DNA of 64,000 nt from assembly GCA_041674805.1 (NCBI GenBank), contig JBAYVA010000002.1, positions 83,234 to 147,233 of the forward strand. Reading direction: 5' to 3'. This DNA comes from Candidatus Magasanikiibacteriota bacterium (GTDB lineage Bacteria > Patescibacteriota > Patescibacteriia > Magasanikbacterales > UBA922). Numbering within the stretch: position 1 is the stretch's first letter; each line of letters starts with the position of its first letter. Both the position numbers and the translations under genes were made by a program. The notes below the pieces were generated by a model, which made no database searches, was not told the DNA's origin, and saw nothing but the letters and a program-made list of their open reading frames with translations. Below, piece by piece: positions 6,901-57,484 of the stretch.

Positions 6901-7697
6901 ATAACTTTTAATTCAAGACTAAAGTTGCCAATATCAGAAAAAATATATGAAAAAAAAGAACTAGTTGATAAAAGTATATTATCAAACAACCAATTATACT
7001 CTACTATTTGGCCATCACTATCACTAGAAGTACTACCATCAAAATCTACAGCTTTTGATTTTTGAAAAATGTTTCCACTTGTAACAATTTTGGCAACAGG
7101 TTTTTGATTTTGAATATCATTATTATCTAAAGACCAATAATTTTTTTGTCCTACCGAATTATTGTCTGGATGTTCTTGCCAATTATCAATATTATTTATT
7201 GGCTGAAATACATCCATTCTTTCCAAAGAATGATTATTTTGGATGGCTTTATAAACAAAATTTTCTATGAAACTATCATCTTTTTTTAAACCTATTTCTT
7301 CTCCACCCTTGTTCAAAGTTGTCCAAGAACTGTCCAAAATTAAAGAAGAAAAATTTGGATATCTCTCAAAAAAATTCAAATCATTTTGAGTAATTACAGC
7401 GTATCCTTTTGGAGCTAAAATAAAAGTTTGAAACAAACTTTTTTCACTAATATTTAAACTATGATTAGTATCTGCTTCCCAAAATTTCCAGCCAGTCAAA
7501 TCCATACTTTCATCACCTTTGTTATAAATTTCTATCCACTGAAAACCACTTTCAGCACAACCAGTAGGACAAATTTCTGTAATCACCACATCATTATCAG
7601 AACCAAAAACAAAATTTTTAAATAAAAAAACACTCAATATAAGTGCTAAAAAAAACAAACTAAATTTTCTTAATTTAATAAAAAAAATTTTAATCAT
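3954..7697 (-). CDS. Giant secreted/membrane-anchored protein with multiple lamin-tail (LTD) domains, a PKD domain and a C-terminal OB-fold
   Basis: N-terminal signal/TM. At least five LTD-like repeats: VITEICPTG..WIEIYNKGDESMDLTGW, NEFVSDPVAGENEWVEIYNNS..DLKDW, INELVSDPSDGEKEFVEIYNNT, LNEIYPNPPGSDSDDEFIEIWNKG, ISEILPNPVGSDTTEFIEIHNPT. PKD-like HWDFADGTDEDGASVEHKF..YTVSLTVSDG. C-terminal OB-fold (ISVTGTVAVEPGIMGTQIFYIVSENAGVQIYMF) followed by a TM helix. Confidence 0.8.
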   Translation of the reverse strand: MIKIFFIKLRKFSLFFLALILSVFLFKNFVFGSDNDVVITEICPTGCAESGFQWIEIYNKGDESMDLTGWKFWEADTNHSLNISEKSLFQTFILAPKGYAVITQNDLNFFERYPNFSSLILDSSWTTLNKGGEEIGLKKDDSFIENFVYKAIQNNHSLERMDVFQPINNIDNWQEHPDNNSVGQKNYWSLDNNDIQNQKPVAKIVTSGNIFQKSKAVDFDGSTSSDSDGQIVEYNWLFDNILLSTSSFFSYIFSDIGNFSLELKVIDDKNDFASDIFNFSIVENFESTTTTTNTIPNYEIVINEFVSDPVAGENEWVEIYNNSTSTIDLKDWEVHEGDKSSSSTKKILVLDNILETKSFLRVNILSSKLNNDGDGIFLYDNSGNLIDTVRFGDWIDFFDEDISDNAPAHSDPYSVARIVDGQNTGNNKNDFSITTEPTPGEVNIIKNIPVSSSGGGSSSSSEVTTKNYNARDLVINELVSDPSDGEKEFVEIYNNTSEIIDLNDWSLEDGSETITILTGTILPKGFFVIEEPKGSLNNAGDILLLLDPSKKEIDKVTYGNWDDGNTYDNAAVASDPYSLIRKTDGQDADNDYYDFIITDTITRGQKNVLSLKAEDLEKQEIFSLQTNIVLNEIYPNPPGSDSDDEFIEIWNKGTETIDLKDWQLSDSSKKKYTIKQGVLKANEFIVFKRTMTQIALNNTGGDEVKLFSPNGAIVNSVSYPGSASDSFSYVRQDDATWVWSSKITAGSKNIVEGKSAAPIIALDVDTEVAVNEWVKFDASDTVSPEGKDLKFHWDFADGTDEDGASVEHKFLQQGVYTVSLTVSDGSNESKKDVVLSVKLSQDFVGGYAGTSDISVLYISEILPNPVGSDTTEFIEIHNPTEEDVDISGLKIDDEEGGSKAYTVGANTLIKAKEYKVFGRQDTKLALNNTSDSVRLLYPDGTIIMEVRFDDVIEGASYVRNSEGNWIWNKIISPGEVNFVEEITEVKSVKIVKSKSNSVKAVINTSLEKIRDEDLGDMISVTGTVAVEPGIMGTQIFYIVSENAGVQIYMFSKDFPDLKRGDKIEVMGEITETSGETRIKLKEKNDIKKLGHSELPIGRVLELEDVGEQYEGSLILVSGEITEIKSSYMYVDDGTEEIKVYFKRGAGIKKDIFEEGNLVSITGLLHQTKTEYQLLPRDQNDIIKTGVSEDLVTKKEKAKEQDNADIVEKYLTATAGGFTAILFGLFLKSNGENIFSKIKKLIKKFISK

Positions 7698-13363: not shown

Positions 13364-13370
13364 AAAAATA

Positions 13371-13396: not shown

Positions 13397-13468
13397 TAGA
13401 AAAAATTATTTAGAATTTTAAAAACCAATAAATAATTAATTAAAATGAACAATAATAAAATAGTTTTA

Positions 13469-14122: not shown

Positions 14123-15250
14123 TTATTTTTTAATAGGCATAACGATATACAAGTAATTGTCTTTTTCTTTTGGTCTAAAAATACAAGGAGCATCAGCACT
14201 ATTTACACCAAATTCAATGTTTTCACCTTCCATGTGTGCTAAACCATCCAACACATAGCTGTGGTTTAATAAAATGGAATTTTCTTCACCAATTACTTCA
14301 GCATCAACTTCAGAAGTATGTTCTCCAGCTTGAGTACTGGAAGAAGAAACTCCTACATTTTTTTTGCTTGGACTAAGCTCAAAAGAAACAGCATTGATAC
14401 CACCTGACGTAAACAAACTCGCTGCTTTGATTTTGTTGACCATAACACTTAGCGGAAAAGCAGCTGTTGTTTTAAAATTGTTTGGAATAATTTGTGTATA
14501 ATCTGGATAACGGCCTTCAATCAAACGACTAGTCATTTCAAAATTTCCATAACGAATAGCTATTTGATTATCACTTACCCAAACACGAACAATATCTTCA
14601 CCGCCATGACTTTTGGCAATTGTCAAAAGACGATTTATTTCATAAGCTACGCGTGCTGGTACAATACAGTGCACATTTTGAATTTCACCTTGTTTAATTT
14701 TTATTTTAGCTTCTGCCAAACGATAAGAATCTGTTGCTGCTAATACTAATCCATCATATTTTTCTGAAAAAAATGAAAAATAAATACCTGAAAATTCTGG
14801 TCTTACTTCGTTTTTGGAAACAGCTATAATAACTTTGCCAATAGCTTCTTTCAAATCATCAACTTGAACAACATAAGAATTTTTTTCTTCCACTTCTGGT
14901 AAAATTGGATAATCTTCATCTGTTGATCCTTTGATTTTAGTGCTAGAATTACCTGAAGTTATGATTAATTCATTGCCTTTTTGGTCTATTTCTACTTGTT
15001 CGCTTGTCAATAACTTAACATAATCTGCCAAAGTTTTTGCTGGAACTGTAAAATTTCCAGTAGTTTCTACTTTGGCTCTAATTTGTGTTTTTACTGCAAT
15101 TTCTAAGTTAGTACTGCTAATTTCAATACCTGAATCATTGGCTTTGATAAGTACGTTACTCAAAATTGGTAAGTTTGTATGTTTACTAGCTAAGGAACTC
15201 ACAAGACTCAAGGAATATTCTAAGTTTTCTTTTGTACATGTGAATTTCAT
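14123..15250 (-). CDS. dnaN: DNA polymerase III beta sliding clamp
   Basis: 375 aa. MKFTCTKENLEYSLSLVSSLASKHTNLPILSNVLIKA... is the canonical DnaN N-terminus. It has the three-domain length and lies directly downstream of dnaA. Confidence 0.9.
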   Translation of the reverse strand: MKFTCTKENLEYSLSLVSSLASKHTNLPILSNVLIKANDSGIEISSTNLEIAVKTQIRAKVETTGNFTVPAKTLADYVKLLTSEQVEIDQKGNELIITSGNSSTKIKGSTDEDYPILPEVEEKNSYVVQVDDLKEAIGKVIIAVSKNEVRPEFSGIYFSFFSEKYDGLVLAATDSYRLAEAKIKIKQGEIQNVHCIVPARVAYEINRLLTIAKSHGGEDIVRVWVSDNQIAIRYGNFEMTSRLIEGRYPDYTQIIPNNFKTTAAFPLSVMVNKIKAASLFTSGGINAVSFELSPSKKNVGVSSSSTQAGEHTSEVDAEVIGEENSILLNHSYVLDGLAHMEGENIEFGVNSADAPCIFRPKEKDNYLYIVMPIKK

Positions 15251-15764: not shown

Positions 15765-17150
15765 TTAAACAGCGTTGGAATATAATCTTTGTTTTATCAT
15801 TTCCAAATCTTGTTTGAGCTTTAAGTCGTTGTCTATACTTTGTAATATTTTACTGTGTGCATGCATAGCTGTAGTATGATCTCTACCACCTAGTTCATCA
15901 CCTATATTTGGATAAGAAAGTTTCAACTCTTCTCTTAGCAAATACATGATAATTTGACGTGGAAAAGCTAATTTTTTTTCACGACTTTTGCCGAGTACAT
16001 CATCGATAGAGATATCAAAATAACCAGCTACGACATTTATTATTTCACGAGGAGTTAAAGAACGTTTCATACTTTGTTCTTCAAAACTAGATAATACTTG
16101 TTTAATAGTTTCTTCAGTTGCTTCAATATTTTTTAGTTCGTGATAAGCAATAATTTTGTTGAGAGCGCCTTCTAATTCACGAATATTATTTTTAACATTT
16201 GTCGCAATAAATTGGATAAGTTTTCCTTCAATTTTGAAATCTTTTTCCTGAGCTTTTCTTTGTAGAATAGCTAAACGAGTTTCTAAGTCAGGAGGAGAAA
16301 TATCAGCAATCATACCCCATTCAAATCTACTGCGTAAGCGATCTTCTAAAGCAGGTATGGCTTTTGGTGGTCTATCACTTGTTAAAACAACTTGTTTACC
16401 TTGTTGGTGTAATTCGTTGAAAGTGTGAAAAAATTCTTCTTGTGTTTGTTCTTTGCCACCAATAAATTGAATATCATCAATCAAAAGTAAATCAACATTT
16501 CTATATCTATCTTTGAATTCTTTGGCTCTACCTTCTTTTACAGAAGAAACAAATTCATTGGTAAATTTTTCAGAACTAACGTATAAAATTTTTGTTTGAG
16601 GATTGGCCTCAAGCATAGTATGGCCAATCGCTTGTATAAGATGAGTTTTTCCCAAACCTACTCCTCCATAAATGAATAAAGGGTTGTAAGAATCTCCAGG
16701 ACGACGAGCTACGGCTTGAGCTGCAGCATGAGCAAGTTCATTACCTTTACCTACGACAAAAGTATCAAAAGTATATTTTGGATTCAAACCAAATTGCTGA
16801 ACCAAAGTATTTTTTCTTTGGTTATTGTATAAAGGGTTTGTAATAGTAGAAATTTGTGGTAACTTCTCTGACATTTTACATTCAGATTCTTTGATATTTT
16901 TTATATTTTCTACTATATAATCTACTTTTTTGATAGGTTTGCCTGTCACTCTTTCTAAGATCTTGATTATTTGAGAGTGATGCTTCTTTTCTAACCAACT
17001 CTTTGTAAAGGAGTTAGGAACACAAATATTCACTAATCCTTCTTCATAATTTGCTATTCCTGTGTTTTTGAACCATGTCGTAAATTGAGCTTTGGATAAA
17101 CTTAGCTCAAATTCGGCCAAAACAGCTTGCCAGATTTCGTGAGTGGTCAT
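15765..17150 (-). CDS. dnaA: Chromosomal replication initiator protein DnaA
   Basis: Walker A GGVGLGKTHLIQAIGH, Walker B LLLIDDIQF, and a C-terminal helix-turn-helix DNA-binding domain. Confidence 0.95.
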   Translation of the reverse strand: MTTHEIWQAVLAEFELSLSKAQFTTWFKNTGIANYEEGLVNICVPNSFTKSWLEKKHHSQIIKILERVTGKPIKKVDYIVENIKNIKESECKMSEKLPQISTITNPLYNNQRKNTLVQQFGLNPKYTFDTFVVGKGNELAHAAAQAVARRPGDSYNPLFIYGGVGLGKTHLIQAIGHTMLEANPQTKILYVSSEKFTNEFVSSVKEGRAKEFKDRYRNVDLLLIDDIQFIGGKEQTQEEFFHTFNELHQQGKQVVLTSDRPPKAIPALEDRLRSRFEWGMIADISPPDLETRLAILQRKAQEKDFKIEGKLIQFIATNVKNNIRELEGALNKIIAYHELKNIEATEETIKQVLSSFEEQSMKRSLTPREIINVVAGYFDISIDDVLGKSREKKLAFPRQIIMYLLREELKLSYPNIGDELGGRDHTTAMHAHSKILQSIDNDLKLKQDLEMIKQRLYSNAV

Positions 17151-17733: not shown

Positions 17734-17913
17734 ATGGCAACAAAAAGAACATATCAGCCAAAAAAACGTAAAAGAGCAAAGACCCATGGTTTTCTAGAAA
17801 GAATGAAAACAAAAGATGGTCGTAAAGTTCTTAAGGCACGTCGTGATAAAGGCAGAAAAAAACTTACAGTAAGTGAAGAAAGAACAGGTAAAAGAACAAG
17901 AAAAACACGTTAA
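17734..17913 (+). CDS. rpmH: 50S ribosomal protein L34 (59 aa, with a 13-residue basic C-terminal extension)
   Basis: Not in the ORF table because it is under 60 aa. Translation: [59 protein letters not shown]. The L34 consensus normally ends near ...KRLTV. It sits upstream of rnpA. Confidence 0.85.
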
Positions 17914-17978
17914 TTTGTCTGTTTTTAATCTAATAACCATTACTACCTCGTTTTTACGAGGTTTTTGTGTTATAATAT

Positions 17979-18362
17979 TTGTATATGTTAGCCAAAGAAT
18001 TTAGATTAAGAGGTAAAAAAGAATGGGAAGTTTTGTTTGCAGAAGGTAACTTTGCTTCGGCAAATTTTTTGACGGTCAAATTTTGGAAGATAGAAGTAAA
18101 TAAATTTCCTCGTAGAAAGTTTCAAGTATCAGATCTTAAGATAGGCTTTAGTGTTGGTTTAAAAATAAGTAAAAGTGCTGTAAAACGTAATAGTGTTAAA
18201 AGAAAAATGAGTGAAGTTGTGAGATTGTTATTAAAAGACAATAAAATTAAATCAGGTTATTTGATTGGATTCTTGGCTAAAAATAATATTTTAGATGTTG
18301 ATTACTCACAAATAGAAGCAGATATTATTAATTGTCTGAAAAAATCTAAACTATTAATCTAA
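17979..18362 (+). CDS. rnpA: Ribonuclease P protein component
   Basis: 127 aa basic protein. ...LAKEFRLRGKKEWEVLF... It follows rpmH in the conserved operon. Confidence 0.85.
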   Translation: MYMLAKEFRLRGKKEWEVLFAEGNFASANFLTVKFWKIEVNKFPRRKFQVSDLKIGFSVGLKISKSAVKRNSVKRKMSEVVRLLLKDNKIKSGYLIGFLAKNNILDVDYSQIEADIINCLKKSKLLI

Positions 18363-22119: not shown

Positions 22120-24108
22120 TTATTTTAACAAACCAATTATGAGCAAAGCCACAATGTTAGCCACTTTGATCATAGGATTGATTGCAGGGCCAGCTGTGTC
22201 CTTGTAAGGGTCACCTACAGTGTCACCAGTGACAGCAGCTTGATGTGCAAAACTTCCTTTACCACCGTGATTGCCTTCTTCAATATATTTTTTTGCATTG
22301 TCCCAAGCACCACCACCAGTAGTCATAGAAATTGCGACGAATAGACCGGTGATAATAGTACCAACAAGCAAACCACCAAGAGCAGCAGCACCCAAGAAAT
22401 AACCAACTAAGATTGGAGCTACAACAGGGATAACTGCTGGTAAAATCATTTGACCAATAGCACCTTTAGTTACTATATCTACTGTTTTGGCATAGTCAGG
22501 TTTGGCTTGACCTTCCATAATACCTTTGATTTCACGGAATTGTCTGCGAACTTCTTCTACTACACTACCAGCTACTTTACCTACTGATTGCATTAGTAAT
22601 GAACCAAATAAGTAAGGAAGCAAACCACCAATAAATAAACCTGTCAAAACTTTTGGATCATCAATTCTAAATACTGTACTGATACCTTCTGCATCAAGTT
22701 TGTGTGTGAAATCTGCAAATAATACTAGAGCAGCTAGAGCAGCTGAAGCGATAGCATAACCTTTGGTAACAGCTTTTGTGGTGTTGCCAACAGCATCTAG
22801 CGGATCTGTAACATTTCTAACATCTTCTCCAAGTTCTGCCATTTCGGCGATACCACCAGCATTGTCAGTGATAGGTCCATAAGCGTCGATTGCTACGACA
22901 ATACCAGTAAGAGAAAGCATAGACATAGCAGCGATAGCTACTCCGTAAAGTCCCATGAAGTGATAAGCTACAAGCATACCGGCGACAATAGCCAATACTG
23001 GCAAAGCAGTTGATTTCATGGATACTGCTAGACCTGTGATGACATTGGTACCATGACCTGTTTCACTAGATTTTGCAATTTGTTTTACAGGAGCATATTT
23101 GGTTGAAGTATAATATTCAGTAATCCAAACCATAGCACCAGTAAGTACGATACCAACTACAGTTGTCCAGAAAACATCAGCAGTAGTCGCATTTAAATCA
23201 GCAGCGTAGTGTCTACTCAAGAAAAAGAAACCAATTATTGAGAAAAGGCCAGACATTATTAGACCTTTGTACAAAGCTCCCATGATGTTGTTCTTTTTGC
23301 CAAGTCTGATGAAGAAACTTCCAAAGATTGAAGCAATAATAGAAATAGCTCCAAGCATAAGAGGAAACATAATACCTGCAGTAGTACCAACAAAAGTAAG
23401 TCCACCAAGTACCATCGCAGCGACAGCTGTTACTGCATAAGTTTCAAACAAGTCAGCAGCCATACCAGCACAGTCACCGACGTTGTCACCGACGTTGTCA
23501 GCAATTACAGCTGGATTACGAGGATCATCTTCTGGAATACCTTTTTCTACTTTTCCAACTAAATCAGCTCCGACGTCAGCAGCTTTGGTAAAAATACCAC
23601 CACCGATACGAGCGAATATTGAGATAAGACTACCACCGAAAGCTAATCCAATAAGAGCATCTAGGTCTTTGGTCAATAAATAAAAACCAGCAACTCCCAA
23701 AAGTCCAAGACCAACTACGAGTAAACCAGTAACAGTACCACCTTTGACAGCTACATCTAAAGCAGCTTTTAAACCTTTTTTGGCAGCTTCAGTAGTACGA
23801 ACATTGGCTTTGACAGATACATTCATACCTACAAAACCAGCAATTCCAGAGAAAAGAGCTCCAACTAGGAAACCTAGTCCAGTCATCCAGCCTAAAGTTA
23901 GTCCAAGAACCAAGAAAACAAGGATAGCTACATAAGAAATAGTCTTATATTGGCGAGCCAAATAAGCTTTGGCACCTTCTTGGATAGCGCGAGCAATATT
24001 TTGCATGCGTTCTGATCCTGTAGGCTGTTTGTTTATCCATTGAATTAAAAAGATACCGTAACCAATCGCCAAAACGGCTGGTCCGATAAGCAGTAGTGTT
24101 GTTAGCAT
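22120..24108 (-). CDS. hppA: Membrane-bound proton/sodium-translocating pyrophosphatase
   Basis: 662 aa, about 16 TM. Signature [22 protein letters not shown] and the conserved motif EYYTS are present. Confidence 0.9.
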
Positions 24109-35368: not shown

Positions 35369-35440
35369 GCCCCTGTAGTTCAGTGGATAGAACAAGACAC
35401 TCCTAACGTCTAGACACATGTTCGATTCATGTCAGGGGCA
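35369..35440 (+). tRNA. tRNA-Arg (anticodon CCT)
   Basis: GCCCCTGTAGTTCAGTGGATAGAACAAGACACTCCTAACGTCTAGACACATGTTCGATTCATGTCAGGGGCA. Anticodon loop is CTCCTAA. There is an A31:C39 mismatch. Confidence 0.7.
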
Positions 35441-35515
35441 CAGGCAATGGCAGACGAGAAACAATACACTGCTAACGTTTAGGTATATATTGTGTTTATA
35501 TAGTTTATAATATGT

Positions 35516-35548
35516 ATATTTGTATACATTTGTGTATACAAATATAAA
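35516..35548. repeat. Perfect 13-bp inverted repeat ATATTTGTATACA-tttg-TGTATACAAATAT
   Basis: Read directly from the sequence. It lies between tRNA-Arg and the recombinase gene. Confidence 0.8.
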
Positions 35549-36041
35549 CAATTGTAACTATTTTTTTTAGTAAAACATAATGTTTGCAATAATATTGTAA
35601 ATGAAATTCTTCCACAGATGGCTGTGGATTATTTTTTTAATTTGGATTTCTCCTTTAGTTTTCATTTTTATCTTTCTTATAAAATAGATTAAGCTTTTTA
35701 TGTAAGCAAAGTGAATAAGTTTAAATTTTTTTTATTAGTCTGAATTAGCGATCCAACTGTTGCCTCTTTTCCGATTTCAGTGTAACTTCAGAGTAGCTTA
35801 TTATAAAATATAAAAAAATAGAAATTTGATCTATAAATTCATTAGGACTATCTATAATTTGTATAAAGATGCGAAAAAAATAAAACGAACTATTAGATGA
35901 ATCTTTTAAGAATTTTGAAAGTTTATATATAATATGTATATACAAATTATGGATGTATACAATATACTATACAAACGCAAACAAAAAACGCCAGTAAAAG
36001 GCGTTTTTTGTTATGTTTCACGTGTAACATTATATATTTTG

Positions 36042-36062
36042 TTTCATGTTTCACATGAAACT
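36042..36062. terminator. Hairpin GTTTCATGT-TTC-ACATGAAAC at the 3' end of the recombinase gene
   Basis: Perfect 9-bp stem overlapping the stop codon. A CACGTG palindrome sits nearby. Confidence 0.45.
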
Positions 36063-36889
36063 TGATCCAAATGGCTGAAAATATTGAGTGTTTGTACAGG
36101 CTTACTTGTTTTGTATTTTTTGGTAGTACGAATATTTTTATGGCCAAGTATTTTTTGAAGTTGTTTTTCATCGATTCCCCTTTCAAGCATTTCTTTACTA
36201 AAGCTGTGTCGTAAAGATTGAAAAGTTATTTTTTTAGTTATTTTGGCACGTTTTAGGGCTTCTGTGAAAGCTTTTTCAACAGATCTGATACTTAGTTGTT
36301 TATTTTGTGGGTTTATAAAAACAAAATCATTCATTTTTTTGAAAGCGACAAATCTTTTCAATTCATTTTTTATTGTCTGAGGTAATATAGTTTCTCTATT
36401 TTCTTTAGTTGATTTGTTGTTTAGGGTAATAATGTTGTTTTCAAATTGTAAATTTTTGACTTTTATATCTATAATCTCACTTATTTTTAATCCTGAACCA
36501 TAAGATAATAAAAAAATGAGACAATGTTTTTGATTTTTGGTATTTTCTATTATTTTCTCAAATTGTTTTTTGTTCAAAGTATTTATCTTGTTTGTATTTG
36601 TTTTAAAAAAAATTATAGACACTGTTTGTTTTTTGAAATTTTTGTAATAAAATGACAAAATGTTTAAAATTAAATTTTTTGTTTGATTTGATTTTTTTTG
36701 TTGAGTTTTCAAAAATAGTTTTATTGATGTATTTTCGTCAGATATTTTTTTTTTATTTAAAAAAAATAAATATTTTTCTAAATAAAAAAGGTAGGATTTA
36801 ATAGTTGTTGGCTTATAGTTTTTTTGTAGTAAATCAGTTTTTATTTTTGATAAAATATTTTTTTCTGAAATTTTTTTTTGTTTTTTCAT
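36044..36889 (-). CDS. Tyrosine recombinase/integrase (XerC/D-like, phage integrase family), possibly degenerate
   Basis: The C-terminus has box II LRHSFSKEML and LGHKNIRTTKKYKTS with the catalytic Tyr. The box I position reads GLKISE (Lys where Arg is expected). The N-terminus is a SAM-like core-binding domain. Confidence 0.7.
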   Translation of the reverse strand: MKKQKKISEKNILSKIKTDLLQKNYKPTTIKSYLFYLEKYLFFLNKKKISDENTSIKLFLKTQQKKSNQTKNLILNILSFYYKNFKKQTVSIIFFKTNTNKINTLNKKQFEKIIENTKNQKHCLIFLLSYGSGLKISEIIDIKVKNLQFENNIITLNNKSTKENRETILPQTIKNELKRFVAFKKMNDFVFINPQNKQLSIRSVEKAFTEALKRAKITKKITFQSLRHSFSKEMLERGIDEKQLQKILGHKNIRTTKKYKTSKPVQTLNIFSHLDQVSCET

Positions 36890-49438: not shown

Positions 49439-50089
49439 TTATTCTATATTTATTTTATCTCCCAAAAACTTTGGTTGAATATCAAATAATAAATCAAGCA
49501 TCATTTTGAGTCGTGCGAAGCTTTCCCTGATTTGTATTTTTGTATTAGCATAAGATTTTACATTACGAGCATTGTATCCTATAGCGTCTATACCTTTTTT
49601 GTTGGCAATATATATGGCACGTTCATTGTGGAATTTTTGTGAGATGATAGTAATATTCTCTTGTCCAAATATTTCTTTGCTTCGGACGACTGAGTCTAGA
49701 GTTCGAAAGCCAGCATAATCGAGGAAGATGCTCGAAGTCGGCACGCCAGCTTCTATCAAATCATTTTGAATAGTTGTTGGTTCATTGTATTTCTTTGTGC
49801 TGTTGTCTCCACTTACTAAAATAAAATCAATTTTGTTAGCTTCAAAAAGTTTTTTGGCAGCTGTAATTCTATAAGCATAATAAGCATTTATTCTGCCATC
49901 TTTCAAATATTTACTTGTGCCGAGTAATAATCCGACTTTGTTGTGAGGAATATTTTCTATTGAATCATAAATTTTTTCGTCAGTGTTTTTTTCTATTATT
50001 TTGTTGGTGATAATAATAGATGAAGAAAGAAAAATAAAACTCAAGAAAAAAATTAGTAAAAGTTTTAAGAATATTTTTTTCATAATCAA
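49439..50089 (-). CDS. SanA/YdcF/ElyC (DUF218) family protein
   Basis: N-terminal TM. ILVSGDNSTKKYNEPTTIQNDLIEAGVP...DYAGFRTLDSVVRSKEIFG. Confidence 0.7.
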   Translation of the reverse strand: MIMKKIFLKLLLIFFLSFIFLSSSIIITNKIIEKNTDEKIYDSIENIPHNKVGLLLGTSKYLKDGRINAYYAYRITAAKKLFEANKIDFILVSGDNSTKKYNEPTTIQNDLIEAGVPTSSIFLDYAGFRTLDSVVRSKEIFGQENITIISQKFHNERAIYIANKKGIDAIGYNARNVKSYANTKIQIRESFARLKMMLDLLFDIQPKFLGDKINIE

Positions 50090-50643
50090 AACTTCTCCGT
50101 AATATGCAAATGTTTTCTAATTTTATTTTTCCAAGTTTCAAAACTTTCTACCAAAGTTATCAATCCCAACATCACCATGATGAATACTACTGGCTGAGTA
50201 GAATATTGAGGCAGATTAAAAATGCTAAAATTTTGTAAAAATAATTTTAATAATTGCCAGATAATCATTGAGACTAGAGTTGCTAACAAAAATTTAATTA
50301 CGAAAAAATCAAAGTTGAGAAAATTCTGTATGAACTTGCCATCCATTTTTTTTAACCAATTAATATATTTTTGGGAGACAGGATGTTTTTTTGTGTATAG
50401 TAAAAATAATTTGATTATGAAAATAATGATTCCAGAAATAAGAATAGTCAACATAATATCGAAGACTACATGCCACCAAGTAGGGTATTCTTTTCTGATA
50501 GTATTAACCAAAGGTGTGTCCATTAGTTTTAAGCCCGCTGGCAAGGTGAGGGTGGCATAGAGGAAGACAATAGCCGTGACTCTCTGTATCCAGAGCAATA
50601 TTTTGCTGTGTGTTTTTTGGTTTGGATAGTATGTTTTGTTCAT
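50086..50643 (-). CDS. Hypothetical membrane protein (about 5 TM)
   Basis: 185 aa. It overlaps the downstream gene by 4 bp, suggesting an operon. Confidence 0.5.
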   Translation of the reverse strand: MNKTYYPNQKTHSKILLWIQRVTAIVFLYATLTLPAGLKLMDTPLVNTIRKEYPTWWHVVFDIMLTILISGIIIFIIKLFLLYTKKHPVSQKYINWLKKMDGKFIQNFLNFDFFVIKFLLATLVSMIIWQLLKLFLQNFSIFNLPQYSTQPVVFIMVMLGLITLVESFETWKNKIRKHLHITEKF

Positions 50644-50700
50644 AGTTTATAGACTTTACAAAGGTTCAATGTTATGTTATTTTAACATATGCGGAAGATA

Positions 50701-50729
50701 TTGACAAAAGTAGCAAAATGTGCTACACT
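50701..50729 (+). promoter_or_regulatory. Sigma70-type promoter for surface-protein gene A
   Basis: TTGACA, 17-bp spacer, TACACT. A conserved leader of about 140 nt follows. Confidence 0.5.
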
Positions 50730-50866
50730 ACTCCGTTTATTACACATATATAAAAAGGCTTTATTTAGCCGATTAATTCATAATTTACAAATGGTTGTGA
50801 TTTCCATAAACCATTATAATGTGTAGTCATTTTAATTTATACATATTAAGTCTAATATATTCGTCT

Positions 50867-53788
50867 ATGAAAAAGAACTTTTTCGCTAAACTAGGCCATT
50901 TTTTCCTGGTTTCAGCTGTTTTATTCAATGGTTTTGGTGTAGCCTTTGTGAAGGCTGATGTTGTAGAAGTTTTGGGTATGTCTCCAAATACAGCAACTTT
51001 GTCTGAGGGTGACATTAACCCTATTTCTTTAGTAACAATTTCTAATTCATCTACTAGTACTATAAATCTAACATTTACTATGTCAGGTGAAGCTGTTAGA
51101 AGTATAGATGGTAGTGGTGATTATGAATTGTTTGTTGGGGAAGGTTCTCCATTTGTAGTTGTTGATACAAACTTAATAAGTGTGCCTGCAAATGATTCTG
51201 TCATCTTTCCTATAAATATTATAAATGACACAGTATCAGAAAATGCAGAATCTTTTGGTTTGACATTTGAAACAGCTAGTTATGATGATGAAAATAGAAC
51301 ACCTGTAGAAGGTTTTAGTTCTCGTGGTGCTATAAATTTTACTATCAATGATAATGATATTACACCTCCTACTTTTGATACTATTGTCCCTAGTCCATTT
51401 TCAAGAAATGAAAGTGATAATTTTGGTGGTATTGCTACTTTTATAAATAATGCTAGTACAACTTTAGATTTTCATTTTGAAATTAGTGGAACAGCTTCTA
51501 CATCTGATTATATAATTGAAACAACTAGTCGTAGTATAAATGAAAATGGAGATGTTATGGCGGTGCCTAATAGTGTGGATTTAGAAAATGGTATAATTAG
51601 TGGGGTTACAGGAAATGAAAAAAGAAGATTTAATTTTAAACCAGTAGAGGACACAGAAGTAGAAATTGATGAAACAGTTATTATTACATTGAAATATGCT
51701 ACTGATATTGAACAAAGAGTTTATGATTTTGCAGATATTTCTTACACTACTATTATTAAAGATAATGATACTGCATCCACTACTACCACAGCTAACGTCA
51801 CATTTTCTTTTTCAACTTCTACTATTAATGAAAATTCTGGTAATGTAAATGTTGCTAATGTTATTAATAATGAAAATCAAGATGTATCTGTGAAATTTAC
51901 ATTTTCTGGCACAGCAGTATATGGCACAGACTATACTTTGAGATCAGGAACTGGTACTTCTATTTTTGGTAATGGTACAGAAGCAGTACTTTTGATAGGT
52001 ATTAATAGTAGTAGTAGTTTTCCTTTGACTCTGAATACAGTTGATAGTGATAAAACTGTTGAAATTACTCTTACACAAGTAAATTTTGCGGATAATTCAA
52101 CAACAACATCTTTCACTGCAGGAAATGTTACAACACATACACTTACTATCAAAAATGTTCCTACATCAGGTGAAAATAATATTCCAACAATAAAAACACC
52201 GATAGCCACACAATATATAGATCTTTATGTTACTTCTACATTAACTATTAATAATGAAATATTAAAGAATTTATTTTTTGATTTAGATACTAATGATAGA
52301 GTTGGTATTAGTTTGACTAATAATACAGATGCTACTGTTGTAACAACAACATCAGACATAGAATTTTCTAGTTTAGTATTAACAGGTTTAAAAGTTGGAA
52401 CAAGTACTATTGAACTTACTGGTGATGATCATCGTGGTGGTATTGTTACCTCAACTTTCGATGTAATCGTTACTGATTCTACTCCTGTTGAGGGAAATAA
52501 TGCTCCAACATCAACTGTAATAGATGATAAAACATTGGAGGTTGGTCAGACTTTTGATATTATTCCTAGTGTTATTTTTGAAGATGTAGAAGATAGTGAT
52601 GATAAGTTAACTTATGGTGTAGAAATTAGTGCTGGTTCTGTTGTTTCTGTAACAACAACAAATTTTACAAATTCTTGGGCATATACTTTTACTGCTGAAA
52701 GTGTAGGTACTTCTACAATTACTCTTAGTGCAACTGATTTGGGTGGTCTTAGTACAAGTACATCATTTAAGGTAACTGTCACAGAAGATGTAACACCTAT
52801 ATTAATAAAAGAAATAGTTAATCAAACTTTAAAAGTAGGTGAAAGTGTAGTTTTGAACTTAAATGATTATTTTTCAGATCCAAACGAAGATGTCTTGTCT
52901 TTTTTAACAAGTATTAACGTTCCAAATTTAATTACTACAACACTTAATACTGAAACAAATAAATTAACAATTACTGGTGTAGCTATAGGTACAACTCTTA
53001 TGAGTGTTACTGCCTCTGATAGTCAACATAGTGTTTATGATATATTTAATGTCACAGTAAAAGAAAATAATGAAGGTAATACTGATAACAATACCGGTTC
53101 AAGTAACGGCGGTGGTAGTTTATTACCAAACACAGCTCCTCAAGCTTCTATGGTTGTTGGTCAAGAAGTAACTATCGAAGTAAACAAAGAAATTACTTTT
53201 GATGCTAGTAGTAGTGTAGATAAAGAAGGAAACATTAGATTTTATTTCTGGAACTTTGGTGACGGAAGTGATGAAGTATATTACACTGTCCCAACAGTCA
53301 AATATACTTATACTAAAATAGGTAATTACACTTTGAATATCAAAGTAAAAGATGCTTACGGTGCTGAGAGTAGTGCGCAAGTAAAGGTAAAAGTTGTAGC
53401 TGGCAAAGCTTCTACAAATACGGGAACTCCAAATACTAATACTGAAAGTGGAACTAAAACTGAAACTGAAACTACAACTTCTACTTCAACAACTGATACC
53501 CCAACTCCTGTAGAAGAAACTGGAAGTACTGGTAGTACAAATAATAATACTAACAATAACACTTCTGCTAATAATACTGAAGAAGAAGCAATAACAACTG
53601 AGGAAGAAAATACTTCTATAGAAGAAGAGACTACTTCTGAAAATACTGAAGAAGAAATTACTGAAGAAGTACCTGCTGAAACAACAGAAGAATTACCAAC
53701 TTGGATCAAGATCATCTTTGGCAGTGGTGCTCTAGCTGCTATTGCTGGCGCTGGACTTGCTATCAATAGAGTGAGAAAAAATGTGTAA
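50867..53788 (+). CDS. Giant cell-surface protein A (signal peptide, Ig/cadherin-like repeats, PKD domain, Thr/Glu-rich stalk, C-terminal TM anchor)
   Basis: The likely true start is MKKNFFAKLGHFFLVSAVLFNGFGV, which matches the paralog start. The ORF-table start at 50819 adds 16 non-conserved residues. PKD: FYFWNFGDGSDEVYYTVPTVKYTYTKIGNYTLNIKVKDAYG. C-terminal EELPTWIKIIFGSGALAAIAGAGLAINRVRKNV. Confidence 0.8.
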   Translation: MKKNFFAKLGHFFLVSAVLFNGFGVAFVKADVVEVLGMSPNTATLSEGDINPISLVTISNSSTSTINLTFTMSGEAVRSIDGSGDYELFVGEGSPFVVVDTNLISVPANDSVIFPINIINDTVSENAESFGLTFETASYDDENRTPVEGFSSRGAINFTINDNDITPPTFDTIVPSPFSRNESDNFGGIATFINNASTTLDFHFEISGTASTSDYIIETTSRSINENGDVMAVPNSVDLENGIISGVTGNEKRRFNFKPVEDTEVEIDETVIITLKYATDIEQRVYDFADISYTTIIKDNDTASTTTTANVTFSFSTSTINENSGNVNVANVINNENQDVSVKFTFSGTAVYGTDYTLRSGTGTSIFGNGTEAVLLIGINSSSSFPLTLNTVDSDKTVEITLTQVNFADNSTTTSFTAGNVTTHTLTIKNVPTSGENNIPTIKTPIATQYIDLYVTSTLTINNEILKNLFFDLDTNDRVGISLTNNTDATVVTTTSDIEFSSLVLTGLKVGTSTIELTGDDHRGGIVTSTFDVIVTDSTPVEGNNAPTSTVIDDKTLEVGQTFDIIPSVIFEDVEDSDDKLTYGVEISAGSVVSVTTTNFTNSWAYTFTAESVGTSTITLSATDLGGLSTSTSFKVTVTEDVTPILIKEIVNQTLKVGESVVLNLNDYFSDPNEDVLSFLTSINVPNLITTTLNTETNKLTITGVAIGTTLMSVTASDSQHSVYDIFNVTVKENNEGNTDNNTGSSNGGGSLLPNTAPQASMVVGQEVTIEVNKEITFDASSSVDKEGNIRFYFWNFGDGSDEVYYTVPTVKYTYTKIGNYTLNIKVKDAYGAESSAQVKVKVVAGKASTNTGTPNTNTESGTKTETETTTSTSTTDTPTPVEETGSTGSTNNNTNNNTSANNTEEEAITTEEENTSIEEETTSENTEEEITEEVPAETTEELPTWIKIIFGSGALAAIAGAGLAINRVRKNV

Positions 53789-54158
53789 GATTGTTTGATA
53801 ATATAAAAAATAAAGAAGCTATTCATATATATTGAGTAGCTTCTTTTTTTATGAAGTTTTGATTGTTCACACATAGACTTTACAAGATATAAAGATTATG
53901 TTAATTTAATATATGTAGGATGTTGACAAAAATAGTATGGTATGTTGTTAATTTCTCTCATATTTAGATACATTCAAAGGCTTTATTTGGCCAATTAGTA
54001 ATTCAAAATGGTCGTGACCATTCACATAAACCATTGTAATATATAGTCAGTTTACTCATACTTAAAAAGTATGATAAATTTATCTATTAATTCATACTAA
54101 TTGAGTATGATATATTTAACTTATTAATTCAAAATTACCAAGTTTAATATATTTACTT

Positions 54159-57100
54159 ATGAAAAATAATTTTTTTGCTAAACTGGGAAACTTTTTTCTG
54201 GTTTCGGCTGTATTGTTCAATGGTTTTGGGGTAGGTTTGGTAAGTGCAGAATATGCAGAAGTTGTCTCTCCCACATTCTCTTTACTTGTTGATAATGTAA
54301 AAGAAGGAAATTTAGGAGAAACAACTACTTATAATGTTGGTGTAAAATATAATGGTCCAGTTTTGGTCTCTGATTATACTGTGGAAGTAATATTTTATAG
54401 TGTTTTAAATGATACTTTTGCTGAATATGGTGTTGATTATGAGGTACCTAATTCTGTGCCTAATTTGGAAGATTCTTCGTATTTTCTTACTTTTACGCCA
54501 GCAACACAAAATGATGAATTGTTTGTTCCTGTAACTGTTATGGGTAACGATACTATTAATAGTTTTAATGTTTTATTCAAATACATTATTTTTACTATAA
54601 AAGGTATTAATATCGACCAACCTGACCAGCTGTTTGGTTTGAGTATTGAAGATGATGATGTTCCTACTATTATTGAACCAATATTTACTCCCGCTACTTC
54701 TGTTGTCTATGAAGGTGTTGCTACAGGAGCTAATGTTACTAAGTTGGTAAACAATAATAATACTGATTTAATTTATACTATTGAACTTACTGGTGATGCT
54801 TTACTCGAACAAGAATTTGGATTGTCTGTTATTGATGAACAAAATATCTCTACACCAATCATGAGTAATTTTTTCAATCTTTCTGTACCAAGAAATTCTA
54901 GTTCTACTTTTTCTGTTCGTACAAATGGTATTTATGATAATTCGTCTTTTGATAATGTTGCAAAACAGACAATTTGGACTGTAACAAATGCGTTTGATGA
55001 GAGTATCTTTATTGATTATGATTTATCTTTAAGTAATATCAACTTTACTTTGGATATAAAAGATGAGGAAAATGATGTAGGTTTTATAAATCCAGCTTCA
55101 TCTGTTGCAGAAGGAATTTCATTGAATGACTCTAATTCATCACTTGTATACAACAATGGTACTGACAATGATGTGTCTTTGACATTTGAACTTTCGGGTA
55201 CGGCATCTTCTTTAACGGATTATACTGTAAGAACAAATGAATTGAGTTCAGGTTCTACTTGGGTAGTACCAAAAAATTCTATTAAATCTTTTCCTGTAGA
55301 TATCTTGAATGTAACTGGTGAAAAAAATTTAGTGTTTACAATTACAAAAATAGATTTATTAAATGACAATGGTACCATTAAAAATGGAAATATTACACCT
55401 ATTTTACCGAATGCACAGACACACACTTTGACAATTCTGGATAATGTTGTACCGCCTGTAAATCATGCACCTGTTGCAATTATGCAACCAATACTTTTGG
55501 GTAATGTTAATGTTGGTTCAAACTCAACCCCTGTTTCATTTTCAACCACTTTTTCAGATCCTGATTCAGATGTACTTACATATAGTGTAGAACTTTCAAA
55601 TCCTGTAATTGCAACATCTCAAATAACAGCAGGTGAGTTGGTACTTACAGGAACAAGTGTCGGTACAACAACAGTAACAATGATGGCTACAGATCCTGAT
55701 GGCTTGAGTGCTAGTACCACGTTTAGTTTGACTGTCGTAGAAAATAATAATGGTGGTGGAAATAATTCTCCAACAGTAAATATTCCAATAGCCACACAAT
55801 ATATTGATCTCTATACTACTTCCACATTAACTATTAATAATGCAATATTGCAGAATTTATTTTCTGATGCTGATGTTAATGACATAGTTGGTATTAGTTT
55901 GACTAATAATACAGATGCTACTGTTGTGACAACAACACCAGGCATAGAATTTTCTAGTTTAATGTTGACAGGTTTGAAAGTCGGTGCAAGTGTTATTGAA
56001 CTTACGGGAGATGATACACATGGTGGTATTGTTACCTCTACTTTTGCGGTAATCGTTAGTGACTCTACTCCTATAGAAGGAAATAATGCTCCTACATTAT
56101 CAACTACAACAGTATTTGTAGATAACGAAATTTCTTTGCAAGAAACATTTGGATCAAATCTTCATCTTTATTTCGAAGATGTTGATGCGGGTGATACATT
56201 AACTTTTTCAGCTACTACAACTGATGCTTCTATAGTGACAAGTGGAATTGACGCATTGGGTCAAATAACACTGACACCACATAATTATGGTACAGTTCAA
56301 GTAATTGTTACTGCCACAGATAATCAAGGTGCTAGTGTCTCTGATGCATTTTCTTTGAAAGTAAATACTCCACCAGAATTAACAGTAAATACTTTAGGAA
56401 ATAAACAAATTGATTTGAAAGTATCATCTAGTTTGTTAATAGATAGTAATACAATTCGTGGTGTTTTTACAGATAGAGATGGAGAAATACTTACTATTTC
56501 TGTAAGTGATAATAGTGATAATACTGTTGTAACAACTACTCTTGGAGAAGATGATTCTCTCACTTTACTTGGTTTAAAAGTGGGAACAAGTACGATTGAA
56601 ATCACTGCTGACGATGGTTATGAAATTACCTCTACTACATTTCTTGTTACGGTTGTAAATTCTACATCTGAAGAAACAGGGAATAATGGTGGCAACTCTG
56701 GCAGTTCAAGTGGATCTAGTGGCGGTGGTGGTTCTGCTCTTCTTTCTAATACAGCTCCTCAAGCTGCTATAACTAATGGTCAAGAAGTAACTGTGGAAGT
56801 AAACAAAGAAATTACTTTTGATGCTAGTCAAAGTACTGACAAAGAAAATAATATTAGATTTTACTTCTGGAACTTTGGTGATGATAGTGATGAAGTATAT
56901 TACACGGTACCAACAGTCAAACATACTTATACTAAAATAAGTAATTACACTTTGATAAGCAAAGTACGTGATGCTTACGGTGCTGAGAGTATTGCTGAAG
57001 TAAAAGTAAAAGTTGTAGCTGCTAAAGGTTCTACAAATACGGGAACTACAAATAATACTTCAAATACTAATACAGAAAGTGAAACTAAAAATGAAACTAC

Positions 57101-57431
57101 AATTCCAAAAACTGATACAACTACATCTGTAAAAGAAACTGGAAGTACTGGTACTACTACAAATACTAATAACAATAATTCTTCTAACAATACTGAAGAA
57201 GAAACAGTTATTGAAGAAGAAATTATAGAAGAAAGTACAATTGAGGAAGAAGATACTTCTTCTGAAGAAGAGTTTATTTTTGAAAATATCAAAGAAGAAA
57301 GTATTAAAGAAACACCAGTTGGAGAAGTAGAAGAACTACCAACTTGGATAAAAATCATCTTTGGTAGTGGTGCTTTAGCTGCTGTAGCTGGCGCTGGTCT
57401 TGCTATTAATAAAGTGAGAAAGAATATATAA
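54159..57431 (+). CDS. Giant cell-surface protein B (paralog of A)
   Basis: MKNNFFAKLGNFFLVSAVLFNGFGV signal peptide. PKD domain is about 85% identical to A. C-terminal EELPTWIKIIFGSGALAAVAGAGLAINKVRKNI. Confidence 0.8.
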   Translation: MKNNFFAKLGNFFLVSAVLFNGFGVGLVSAEYAEVVSPTFSLLVDNVKEGNLGETTTYNVGVKYNGPVLVSDYTVEVIFYSVLNDTFAEYGVDYEVPNSVPNLEDSSYFLTFTPATQNDELFVPVTVMGNDTINSFNVLFKYIIFTIKGINIDQPDQLFGLSIEDDDVPTIIEPIFTPATSVVYEGVATGANVTKLVNNNNTDLIYTIELTGDALLEQEFGLSVIDEQNISTPIMSNFFNLSVPRNSSSTFSVRTNGIYDNSSFDNVAKQTIWTVTNAFDESIFIDYDLSLSNINFTLDIKDEENDVGFINPASSVAEGISLNDSNSSLVYNNGTDNDVSLTFELSGTASSLTDYTVRTNELSSGSTWVVPKNSIKSFPVDILNVTGEKNLVFTITKIDLLNDNGTIKNGNITPILPNAQTHTLTILDNVVPPVNHAPVAIMQPILLGNVNVGSNSTPVSFSTTFSDPDSDVLTYSVELSNPVIATSQITAGELVLTGTSVGTTTVTMMATDPDGLSASTTFSLTVVENNNGGGNNSPTVNIPIATQYIDLYTTSTLTINNAILQNLFSDADVNDIVGISLTNNTDATVVTTTPGIEFSSLMLTGLKVGASVIELTGDDTHGGIVTSTFAVIVSDSTPIEGNNAPTLSTTTVFVDNEISLQETFGSNLHLYFEDVDAGDTLTFSATTTDASIVTSGIDALGQITLTPHNYGTVQVIVTATDNQGASVSDAFSLKVNTPPELTVNTLGNKQIDLKVSSSLLIDSNTIRGVFTDRDGEILTISVSDNSDNTVVTTTLGEDDSLTLLGLKVGTSTIEITADDGYEITSTTFLVTVVNSTSEETGNNGGNSGSSSGSSGGGGSALLSNTAPQAAITNGQEVTVEVNKEITFDASQSTDKENNIRFYFWNFGDDSDEVYYTVPTVKHTYTKISNYTLISKVRDAYGAESIAEVKVKVVAAKGSTNTGTTNNTSNTNTESETKNETTIPKTDTTTSVKETGSTGTTTNTNNNNSSNNTEEETVIEEEIIEESTIEEEDTSSEEEFIFENIKEESIKETPVGEVEELPTWIKIIFGSGALAAVAGAGLAINKVRKNI

Positions 57432-57449: not shown

Positions 57450-57484
57450 AAAAAACACTGTCCGTGATAGGACAGTGTTTTTGT
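57450..57484. terminator. Bidirectional Rho-independent terminator (surface protein B / miaA)
   Basis: A5, then AACACTGTCC-GTGATA-GGACAGTGTT, then T6. Confidence 0.75.

Follow-up and report, generated by a model that had tools for sequence, protein, structure and literature searches.

Bacteria of the candidate phyla radiation (CPR) are thought to live attached to other cells, and very few of their surface molecules are understood. Several described systems offer points of comparison. In LPXTG proteins, a low-complexity region spans the cell wall, and YSIRK represents a conserved specialised type of signal peptide. The haloarchaeal S-layer glycoprotein has a beta-rich ectodomain, a Thr-rich stalk, and a PGF-CTERM processed by archaeosortase A. 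The Vsp/Vlp proteins of Mycoplasma and the Opa and pilin cassettes of Neisseria are recombining variable surface proteins with constant ends. Here, we compare with these systems two tandem genes, g1 and g2, that encode large surface proteins with a common C-terminal tail, and an adjoining gene for a small membrane protein (below, the partner), found in a stretch of 64,000 nucleotides (below, the window) of contig JBAYVA010000002.1 from a Candidatus Magasanikiibacteriota bacterium.

For tripartite C-terminal sorting domains a list of attributes is available, in which regular adjacency of the target and enzyme genes serves as a substitute criterion for dedicated systems (Haft, bioRxiv 10.1101/2023.06.07.544157). 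One such system is JDVT-CTERM with an adjacent CPBP-family intramembrane protease, the adjacency being observed in 16 out of 17 cases (Haft, bioRxiv 10.1101/2023.06.07.544157). The sortase family occurs in more than half of CPR genomes, patchily outside Microgenomates (PMC6744442). For PamC, PamD, and PamR of Ca. Mycosynbacter amalyticus, anchoring by a C-terminal helix has been proposed; the host bacterium of the Pam proteins lacks an outer membrane (bioRxiv 10.64898/2026.03.03.709456).

Taking together the data presented below, we conclude with moderate confidence that g1 and g2 encode Sec-secreted, membrane-anchored, cassette-swapping surface proteins paired with a dedicated four-helix membrane partner. 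The family appears to be small and confined to Candidatus Magasanikbacteria and close relatives. Its architecture as such, that is, a modular surface protein with immunoglobulin (Ig)-like domains and a C-terminal anchor, is of an already known kind, and the proteins are already present in public databases, only as “PKD domain-containing protein”; a literature search found no paper on the family. New are the family-restricted tail, its obligate partner gene, for whose product no fold match was obtained, and the exchange of cassettes documented between lineages.

Results

A constant tail restricted to one protein family

The distribution of the tail was studied at the protein and DNA levels. A search of 1.84 billion representative proteins with a hidden Markov model (HMM) of its 33 residues, in which no word index was used, produced 18 genuine matches and one spurious match, all genuine ones ending 0–2 residues from the C-terminus. 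A stringent degenerate DNA pattern for PTWI(K/R)I.FGSGA identified seven loci in 185,579 species genomes, all of them in Magasanikbacteria, with one or two copies per genome, while a looser pattern applied to a metagenome collection identified 21 loci, all belonging to one family. All carriers, from both the HMM search and the metagenome loci, have the same PKD domain and low-complexity stalk directly before the tail, and within the window the tail is carried by g1 and g2 only. The sequence-only reading, a preliminary annotation of the window made from the letters alone, had envisaged a search for further proteins ending in LPTW, a transmembrane segment, and Arg or Lys; every carrier among the 1.84e9 proteins turned out to belong to the same PKD-stalk family.

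Two candidates were not accepted as carriers (here and below, L numbers denote loci and P numbers denote proteins). The weakest HMM match, P0040, is a repeat protein without the tail, in which FGSG-like repeats were matched internally. P0030 (L024, 248-1681), where 270 unrelated N-terminal residues precede the PKD-stalk-tail module on a 1.7-kb contig, was not counted as independent, since it may represent a true fusion but equally a pseudogene or a chimera of assembly. The window also encodes a second large secreted protein (3954..7697, minus strand, 1247 amino acids) with five lamin-tail (LTD) domains, two PKD domains, and a C-terminal OB-fold/DUF5689; its C-terminal hydrophobic and basic end is unrelated to the LPTW tail.

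Within the family, the tail motif is (L/M/A)P(T/E)W, with invariant Pro and Trp, Thr replaced in one case by Glu, and Ile or Val at the next position. For the membrane segment and the basic cluster the sequence is IKIIFGSGALAA(I/V)AGAGLAI and then N(R/K)VRKN(V/I); the most divergent tail is APEWVRIAFGSGALLAAVGAGVWINRVRKLV. The C-termini of g1 and g2, earlier described as nearly identical, are indeed so: the 99-nucleotide tail-coding regions are 86.9% identical, and 30 out of 33 residues (91%) coincide. Comparison of 19 different sequences encoding the tail shows two to four synonymous codons for each of the invariant residues P4, I9, F11, G12, S13, G14, A15, G21, A22, G23, N27, and R30; W6, also invariant, is uninformative, as Trp has a single codon. 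Between g1 and g2, synonymous divergence (dS) of the tail is 0.56 at nonsynonymous divergence (dN) of 0.05, and the respective values for the signal peptide are 1.42 and 0.06. The mean ratio of nonsynonymous to synonymous differences (pN/pS) equals 0.30 for the tail, 0.31 for the PKD domain, and 0.19 for the signal peptide. The variety of synonymous codons and low dN indicate that the amino acid sequences of both ends evolve under purifying selection. The tail is still recognisable in lineages with the guanine–cytosine (GC) content of 42–47%, where the partner is only 34–40% identical. Conservation of the tail exceeds simple needs of hydrophobicity, and the small-residue pattern FGSGA...AGAG may point to specific packing of the predicted helix.

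At the other end, the proteins have a common signal peptide, as proposed earlier: that of g2, MKNNFFAKLGNFFLVSAVLFNGFGVGLVSA, is 86% identical to that of g1 over 28 residues. Both belong, as read from the sequence, to the n-h-c type and end in VKA or VSA, with neither a lipobox nor a pilin-type site in g1 or g2, and a start resembling such a signal peptide was seen in every complete family member. In all examined loci, the family signal peptide is confined to tail-bearing ORFs (open reading frames), and each complete ORF with this peptide has the tail.

A membrane protein encoded next to the tail proteins

The partner family comprises 12 clusters, all of them hypothetical proteins of Magasanikbacteria or Patescibacteria, and thus is as narrowly spread as the tail family. 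A partner homologue adjoins the gene of the tail protein in every locus with sufficient flanking sequence (L003, L005, L006, L009–L012, L016, L020, L022, L023, L026–L028, L031, L034–L037), with identity to the partner ranging from 95% down to 34%, and this adjacency persists while other neighbouring genes differ among these loci. One case is confirmed in an annotated genome, where the NCBI locus tags of the two genes, COX80_02805 and COX80_02810, follow each other. Contigs of 42–47% GC (L034–L037) harbour the most divergent members of the tail family: here, the partner gene is divergently oriented in L035 (40% identity), L036, and L037, and lies immediately downstream on the same strand in L034 (34% identity), the sole case of a rearranged orientation.

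Other genes near the divergent loci, L038 of the same GC range included, have no counterparts in the window. Loci L034–L036 contain, beside the partner gene, a cluster of glycoside-hydrolase-like, EamA, and DUF6938 genes, and in L036–L038 a CAP/PR-1 domain protein is encoded just downstream of the tail-protein gene. A TrmB-like gene lies between the tail-protein and CAP/PR-1 genes in L035, and L034 has no CAP/PR-1 gene.

The AlphaFold2 (AF2) model of the partner (13 sequences; predicted local distance difference test, pLDDT, of 72) is helical. Four membrane helices are predicted from this model and the hydropathy profile, and according to the positive-inside rule the N- and C-termini would both be cytoplasmic. 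In 15 partner homologues 26 residues are invariant, 16 of them falling in two predicted outer loops or at helix starts; on the outer face these are P35, L40, TPLV 43–46, EYPTW 52–56, P145, Y147, and QPV 150–152. The invariant EYPTW would be situated at the outer start of helix 2, and the partner sequence E-Y-P-T-W-(W/Y/F), leading into this helix, resembles E-L-P-T-W-I of the tail in both orientation and sequence. This likeness is suggestive only.

Comparison with known families gave no assignment for the partner: it has no match in Pfam and zero matches in a profile search against PDB, and the best Foldseek match in PDB has an E-value of 1.1, with template modelling (TM) scores below 0.33. 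In NCBIfam the only match, to an oligosaccharide repeat-unit polymerase, is sub-threshold (19.5 bits versus the cut-off of 40). No Cys or His is invariant among the homologues, and the invariant polar residues are R21, T43, E52, Y53, T55, Y147, Q150, E166, and S167 only. Thus, the partner cannot be assigned to any of the known sorting enzymes considered, namely sortase, exosortase/archaeosortase, rhombosortase, and CPBP/myxosortase, for which Cys/Arg/His, Ser/His, or Glu/His would be expected as catalytic residues.

The tail as a candidate sorting signal

The sequence-only reading interpreted the tail as a possible lineage-wide sorting signal in the manner of LPXTG, PEP-CTERM, and PGF-CTERM. 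It was right that LPTW fits no known class of sorting motifs, as no curated sorting-domain HMM matches it. The interpretation itself was not supported, since the tail occurs in a single family, in one or two copies per genome, and is recognised by no known HMM. Full-length g1 and g2 have no match among NCBIfam models (LPXTG, PEP-CTERM, PGF-CTERM, GlyGly-CTERM, MYXO-CTERM, etc.), and for the isolated tails the best match to a sorting HMM scores 16 bits versus the cut-off of 29 and covers the helix only. The curated LPXTG model matches neither the whole proteins nor the tails even at E-values up to 10, and L-P-T-W-I cannot be aligned to L-P-x-T-G. Sub-threshold NCBIfam matches to GVDTG_CTERM, limited to the helix, and to DLW-39 were rejected. 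In the 64-kb window, a six-frame regular expression search found no sortase TLxTC motif, and no sortase, exosortase, rhomboid, or CPBP domain from Pfam was detected; the co-occurring gene for an enzyme of one of these types, expected under the initial interpretation, was therefore not found there. That interpretation had also named an outcome that would speak against it, namely, a tail limited to these proteins combined with the lack of a candidate enzyme; the first half was observed, with the tail limited to one family, and for the second half the observation covers the window. A literature search on Magasanikbacteria with sortase or PKD found nothing relevant.

The list of attributes of tripartite sorting domains (Haft, bioRxiv 10.1101/2023.06.07.544157) leads to the same view. 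Attributes 1 and 3–6 are present in the tail: location at the extreme C-terminus, a motif, a membrane segment, a basic cluster, and a signal peptide at the other end of the protein. On the other hand, instead of occurring many times, the tail is found once or twice in each species-representative genome, and instead of sharing nothing but the signal (attribute 7) all carriers also share the PKD domain and the stalk. With respect to homologues that lack the signal or have another one (attribute 8), only domain-level relatives (P0011–P0015) were found; their C-termini are different, but these proteins are not orthologues. As the number of occurrences and attribute 7 separate a tag from a family-specific C-terminus, the general sortase-like interpretation is unsupported, and the tail is best seen as a constant C-terminal module of one family, not a general sorting tag. 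It could still be argued that LPTW is a variant motif cut by a housekeeping enzyme (sortase, exosortase, or rhombosortase) whose gene lies in another part of the genome, given the tripartite layout with an N-terminal signal peptide, the frequency of sortases in CPR genomes (over half), and the fact that the inspected part of the genome is 64 kb. However, the restriction to one carrier family with one or two copies per genome in both the 1.84e9 proteins and the 185,579 genomes, the mismatch with L-P-x-T-G, the scores of sorting HMMs, and the lack of both TLxTC and the enzyme domains in the window make this very improbable, and the idea is already largely refuted.

Dedicated one-to-one sorting has to be considered separately. 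Here, the partner would be an enzyme of a new kind that recognises the tail at the outer face of the membrane and cuts near PTW, with the protein either released or transferred to a lipid or cell-wall acceptor. The presence of attributes 1 and 3–6, the adjacency of the target gene to that of a membrane protein (whose status as an enzyme is only putative), the concentration of invariant partner residues at the expected position of the motif, and purifying selection on the Gly/Ser-rich start of the helix, FGSGA, all agree with this scheme. At the same time, neither HMM nor sequence nor fold comparison relates the partner to a known sorting enzyme or protease, and it has neither an invariant Cys nor an invariant His; the tail is no more conserved than the PKD domain in terms of pN/pS (0.30 versus 0.31); and it never occurs apart from the PKD domain and stalk, which makes it indistinguishable from an ordinary family-specific C-terminal domain. 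Hence, we consider dedicated sorting doubtful. With similar reserve, one may propose that the partner and the (L/M/A)P(T/E)W tail constitute a hitherto unrecognised Magasanikbacteria-specific sorting or anchoring pair, the partner being a new membrane enzyme or a docking factor that would process or hold the C-terminal end of a hypervariable surface protein passed between lineages. Docking or co-anchoring by the partner is at least as likely as processing, and we infer that the mature protein keeps the helix.

Mosaic structure and recombination

Comparison of the g1 and g2 DNA by a repeat finder revealed four common segments: the 5' ends including 35 nucleotides upstream (76% identity), block A (52169-52468 versus 55755-56054, 85%), the PKD block (53129-53428 versus 56748-57047, 86%), and the final 205 nucleotides (80%). 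For comparison, random 300-nucleotide pairs from the two genes have a mean identity of 53.5% and a maximum of 78%. The similarity of two of these regions had been noted before, with somewhat overstated values: the measured identity is 84.4%, not 88%, for 52177-52510 versus 55763-56095, and 84.3%, slightly below the suggested value of about 85%, for the PKD block aligned in register (53120-53400 versus 56739-57019).

Codon-wise dS between g1 and g2 is 0.36 in block A, 0.35 in the PKD block, and 0.30 in the stalk, as opposed to ~0.97 in the remaining body; the stalk, with dN of 0.29, evolves roughly neutrally. The orthologue baseline, g2 versus L004, is dS of 0.22. Low dS in the shared blocks implies that their common ancestry is younger than that of the rest, that is, gene conversion or domain exchange.

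Related contigs contain sharp breakpoints. L003 is 92–95% identical to the window over the partner gene, promoter, signal peptide, and 3' PKD-stalk-tail region, while ~1.5 kb of the g1 body are swapped for unalignable sequence and a 0.6-kb segment is missing. Between L016 and L020, identity is 100% in the partner gene and in the initial 2.3 kb and falls to 63–83% in the final 0.8 kb. Conversely, L016 and L006 have 52–83% identity over the partner, promoter, and signal peptide, followed by 99–100% identity to the end. The combination of ectodomain and tail seen in L020 is also present in another two contigs, from other samples, L026 (full) and L021 (5' end missing), which argues against assembly chimeras. 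A sliding-window map presents g1 as a patchwork whose segments have their best relatives in different family members. The breakpoints fall in or beside the constant parts, namely block A, the PKD-stalk-tail module, and the surroundings of the signal peptide, and thus these parts double as recombination anchors. Taking into account both the low-dS blocks (~0.35 versus ~0.97) and the sharp breakpoints, the mosaic, for which the sequence-only reading had suggested domain-level gene conversion or strong selection on particular modules, arises by recombination, among tandem paralogues and among lineages. Phase variation and diversity-generating retroelements were considered and set aside, as the window showed neither a reverse transcriptase nor simple repeats nor features of an invertible promoter.

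A particular case is the 5' end of g2. Its signal-peptide codons (54159-54242) and those of L004 (3189-3272) encode 100% identical peptides at dS of ~1.6, compared to ~0.2 in the rest of the gene; this end seems to have been swapped in from another allele with the peptide sequence kept.

Given that recombination is demonstrably frequent and that dS is 0.30–0.36 in block A, PKD, and stalk versus ~0.97 elsewhere, one could suppose that the conserved ends have no function and are alike only through homogenising gene conversion of the tandem copies. This is highly unlikely, because the signal peptides of g1 and g2 are 86% identical as proteins, whereas their synonymous sites are saturated (dS of 1.42); the g2 peptide is fully identical to that of the L004 orthologue at dS of 1.6; the invariant residues of the tail use two to four codons family-wide; and the tail is kept in the 42–47% GC lineages at partner identity of 34–40%.

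Organization of the gene pair

Both adjacent paralogous ORFs reported by the sequence-only reading were confirmed on the plus strand as tandem members of a modular surface-protein family (Table 1); of the two lengths given there, 1090 residues was correct and 974 should be 973. An independent gene call on the ENA metagenome contig ERZ27247358 (187 kb) yields the identical two products, and g1 corresponds to NCBI MFA7245127.1, with the database name “PKD domain-containing protein.” In the BLASTP alignment of g1 and g2, the C-terminal halves are 53% identical (E=1e-110), and the N-terminal halves, 27%.

Table 1. Features of the g1/g2 locus (window coordinates).
Feature	Coordinates	Strand	Description
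Partner gene	50086..50643	-	Orphan 185-aa (amino acid) protein; directly upstream of g1, divergent; four predicted membrane helices
Divergent intergenic region, partner/g1	50644..50866	.	Back-to-back sigma-70-like sites
g1	50867..53788	+	973-aa surface protein, MKKNFF start
g1 signal peptide	50867..50956	+	MKKNFFAKLGHFFLVSAVLFNGFGVAFVKA; aa 1-30; putative cleavage after VKA by the AXA rule
g1 shared block A	52169..52510	+	Ig-like domain (PIATQYIDLY...); 84-85% nucleotide identity to g2 55755-56096
g1 PKD domain	53129..53392	+	Membrane-proximal domain, aa 755-842; Pfam PKD_4, E=4.8e-16, 59 bits
g1 stalk	53405..53686	+	Thr/Asn/Glu-rich, low-complexity (sequence)
g1 tail	53687..53785	+	EELPTWIKIIFGSGALAAIAGAGLAINRVRKNV; PTW motif, Gly/Ala-rich predicted membrane helix, basic end
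Terminator-like hairpin after g1	53812..53846	+	Intrinsic type; 14-bp stem and T run
g2 upstream region	53850..54158	+	~74% identity to g1 upstream region; TTGACAAAA box common to both
g2	54159..57431	+	1090-aa surface protein
g2 shared block A	55755..56096	+	Counterpart of g1 block A
g2 PKD domain	56748..57011	+	aa 864-951; Pfam PKD_4, E=6.2e-13, 49 bits
g2 stalk	57024..57329	+	Low-complexity, predicted disordered (sequence and AF2)
g2 tail	57330..57428	+	EELPTWIKIIFGSGALAAVAGAGLAINKVRKNI; counterpart of g1 tail
Terminator-like hairpin after g2	57451..57482	+	Intrinsic type; 13-bp stem and T run

Since the source is a metagenome assembly and conserved blocks can seed chimeric joins, the near-identical blocks might be suspected to be the product of a collapsed or chimeric repeat. 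The probability of this is negligible: the blocks are 84–87% identical, i.e., not identical; the g1 and g2 ORFs are intact, each with its own promoter-like region and terminator; and the tandem pair has been assembled independently in at least six other assemblies (L003, L004, L022, L023, L027, L031). This recurrence excludes the collapsed repeat that the sequence-only reading had named as a possible cause of the blocks.

The g1 protein consists of the signal peptide, weak Calx-beta-like and Ig-like beta-sandwich domains, the PKD domain, the stalk, and the tail. The PKD domains of both g1 and g2 score above the PKD_4 gathering cut-off of 27 bits. When domain-sized slices are searched, Big_9 matches are obtained at the threshold level, and He_PIG, Cadherin_5, and Calx-beta matches are sub-threshold. 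In the AF2 model of g2 (alignment of 17 sequences; mean pLDDT of 66, mostly 70–90 within domains), some eight beta-sandwich domains, including PKD, are predicted, with a Gly/Ser linker directly before PKD, a disordered region at residues 956–1065, and a terminal helix at residues 1070–1089 modelled at low confidence. A Foldseek search of PDB with this model retrieves Ig arrays of various kinds, among them ectodomains of cadherins, S-layer proteins of bacteria, and nuclear-pore and ciliary proteins. These matches are generic and support only a bead-on-a-string succession of beta-sandwich domains. The predicted layout is that of a type I membrane-anchored protein, with a putatively cleavable signal peptide, one hydrophobic helix at the C-terminus, and a positively charged cytoplasmic end. 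One family member, P0033 (L038, 109-3207), contains a Pectate_lyase_5-type beta-helix region inside the ectodomain, and thus the variable body can recruit non-Ig folds, possibly binding polysaccharides.

Candidate sigma-70-like sites in the divergent intergenic region are located at 50701-50729 on the plus strand and 50707-50679 on the minus strand. Two boxes upstream of g1, 50746-50775 and 50800-50834, recur before g2 at 53968-53997 and 54020-54054. They are 83% identical between the genes, presumably belong to the 5' leader, and contain small inverted repeats (GGCTTTATTTAGCC; AATGGTT...AACCATT). No Rfam family matches these regions (50746-50834, 53968-54054); the boxes may be an operator or an RNA structure. 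As each gene is followed by its own hairpin and the upstream regions are homologous, g1 and g2 form two transcription units that originated from a duplication including the promoter. Long antisense ORFs 53356..53874 and 56975..57358 (both on the minus strand) overlap the regions encoding the stalks and tails; they are low-complexity mirror images of the Thr/Asn/Glu-rich stalk and most likely do not represent genes.

Other observations in the window

The GC skew changes its sign at 12000-18000, with the cumulative minimum at ~12–16 kb, and dnaN (14123..15250) and dnaA (15765..17150), both on the minus strand, lie beside this minimum; this region probably contains the chromosomal replication origin. 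The gene of the H+-translocating pyrophosphatase (22120..24108, minus strand) lies in the only stretch with ~40% GC, compared to ~30% elsewhere, which could reflect a compositional constraint or foreign origin. A gene encoding a tyrosine recombinase of the phage-integrase family (36044..36889, minus strand) is situated ~600 bp from a tRNA gene (35369-35440), and the region 35369-36889 may be the edge of an integrated element.

Discussion

The observations fit the following scheme, which we favour. Each protein would be exported by Sec via the family-specific signal peptide and display a string of weak Calx-beta-like and Big_9/cadherin-like Ig domains followed by PKD, kept away from the cell by a long, acidic, Thr/Asn-rich disordered stalk. 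The C-terminal helix would serve as a stop-transfer anchor retained in the cytoplasmic membrane, with P-T-W at the outer interface, FGSGA...AGAG providing a packing face, and the basic end in the cytoplasm, and it may dock on the dedicated partner. Homologous recombination diversifies the exposed body, with crossovers in or next to the constant parts giving rise to the mosaic. The partnership of the tail and the membrane protein is suggested by the sequence-specific conservation of the former and its invariable adjacency to the latter. The protein may act as an adhesin or a surface coat.

Several points weigh against this scheme. The layout of the proteins is exactly that of cleaved sorting signals, and dedicated sorting enzymes are likewise characterised, according to the published list, by a multi-pass membrane protein encoded next to the target. 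It might be the ectodomain or its regulation, and not the tail, that the partner serves. Confidence in the partner model is only moderate (pLDDT of 72, 13 sequences), and the topology of the partner is derived from the positive-inside rule alone. The likeness of EYPTW and ELPTW could be due to chance, PTW occurring twice more in 17.6k residues of the window ORFs, and the most divergent tail has APEW although its partner retains EYPTW. Finally, part of the apparent breakpoints could be chimeras of metagenome assembly.

The locus represents a compact testable unit, comprising one or two exposed multi-domain proteins and a single conserved membrane protein, and constant ends combined with a recombination-replaced outer body form the pattern expected under pressure from hosts, phages, or predators. 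If the partner does process or dock the tail, the pair would join the few mechanisms of C-terminal sorting and anchoring known in prokaryotes and could be used to tag or display proteins on the surface of CPR cells; the interest would be greater still in the case of a processing enzyme. If the partner does neither, a tempting over-reading is corrected: the combination of motif, helix, and basic residues in a tail is not enough for a sortase-like signal.

Comparison with known systems

As in LPXTG substrates of sortase A, in g1 and g2 a Sec signal peptide, a repeated Ig-like ectodomain, a low-complexity region, and an end composed of a motif, a hydrophobic segment, and basic residues follow each other, and the conserved specialised signal peptide recalls the YSIRK type. 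The differences are the motif, (L/M/A)P(T/E)W, not matched by the LPXTG HMM, the single carrier family, and the lack of a sortase in the 64-kb window. Similarly, the large beta-rich ectodomain, the Thr-rich stalk near the membrane, the motif-helix-basic end, and the presence in one or few copies are common with the haloarchaeal S-layer glycoprotein, whereas the PGF motif is absent, a homologue of archaeosortase was not detected, and the lineage is a bacterial one from CPR; an S-layer role for g1 and g2 is only a possibility.

The closest parallel among dedicated systems is with JDVT-CTERM in that a C-terminal motif, helix, and basic cluster are found on a protein with a signal peptide, there are one or two targets per genome, and a gene for a multi-pass membrane protein is adjacent, here in every informative locus. 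Unlike JDVT-CTERM, the motif has no invariant Cys, the partner is not CPBP/Rce1-like and bears no recognisable catalytic signature, and the tail is never detached from the PKD-stalk module. PamC, PamD, and PamR are also Sec-exported beta-sandwich proteins with a proposed tether to the cytoplasmic membrane by a C-terminal helix; the proteins are unrelated to g1 and g2, and neither a conserved tail motif nor a dedicated partner has been described for them.

With respect to variability, conserved 5' and 3' ends around a hypervariable body, tandem paralogues, and recombination mosaics link the family to Vsp/Vlp of Mycoplasma and to Opa and pilin of Neisseria. In contrast to those, there are only one or two expressed copies, with no silent cassette archive, phase-variation repeats, or invertible elements seen, and the exchange here appears to include transfer between lineages.

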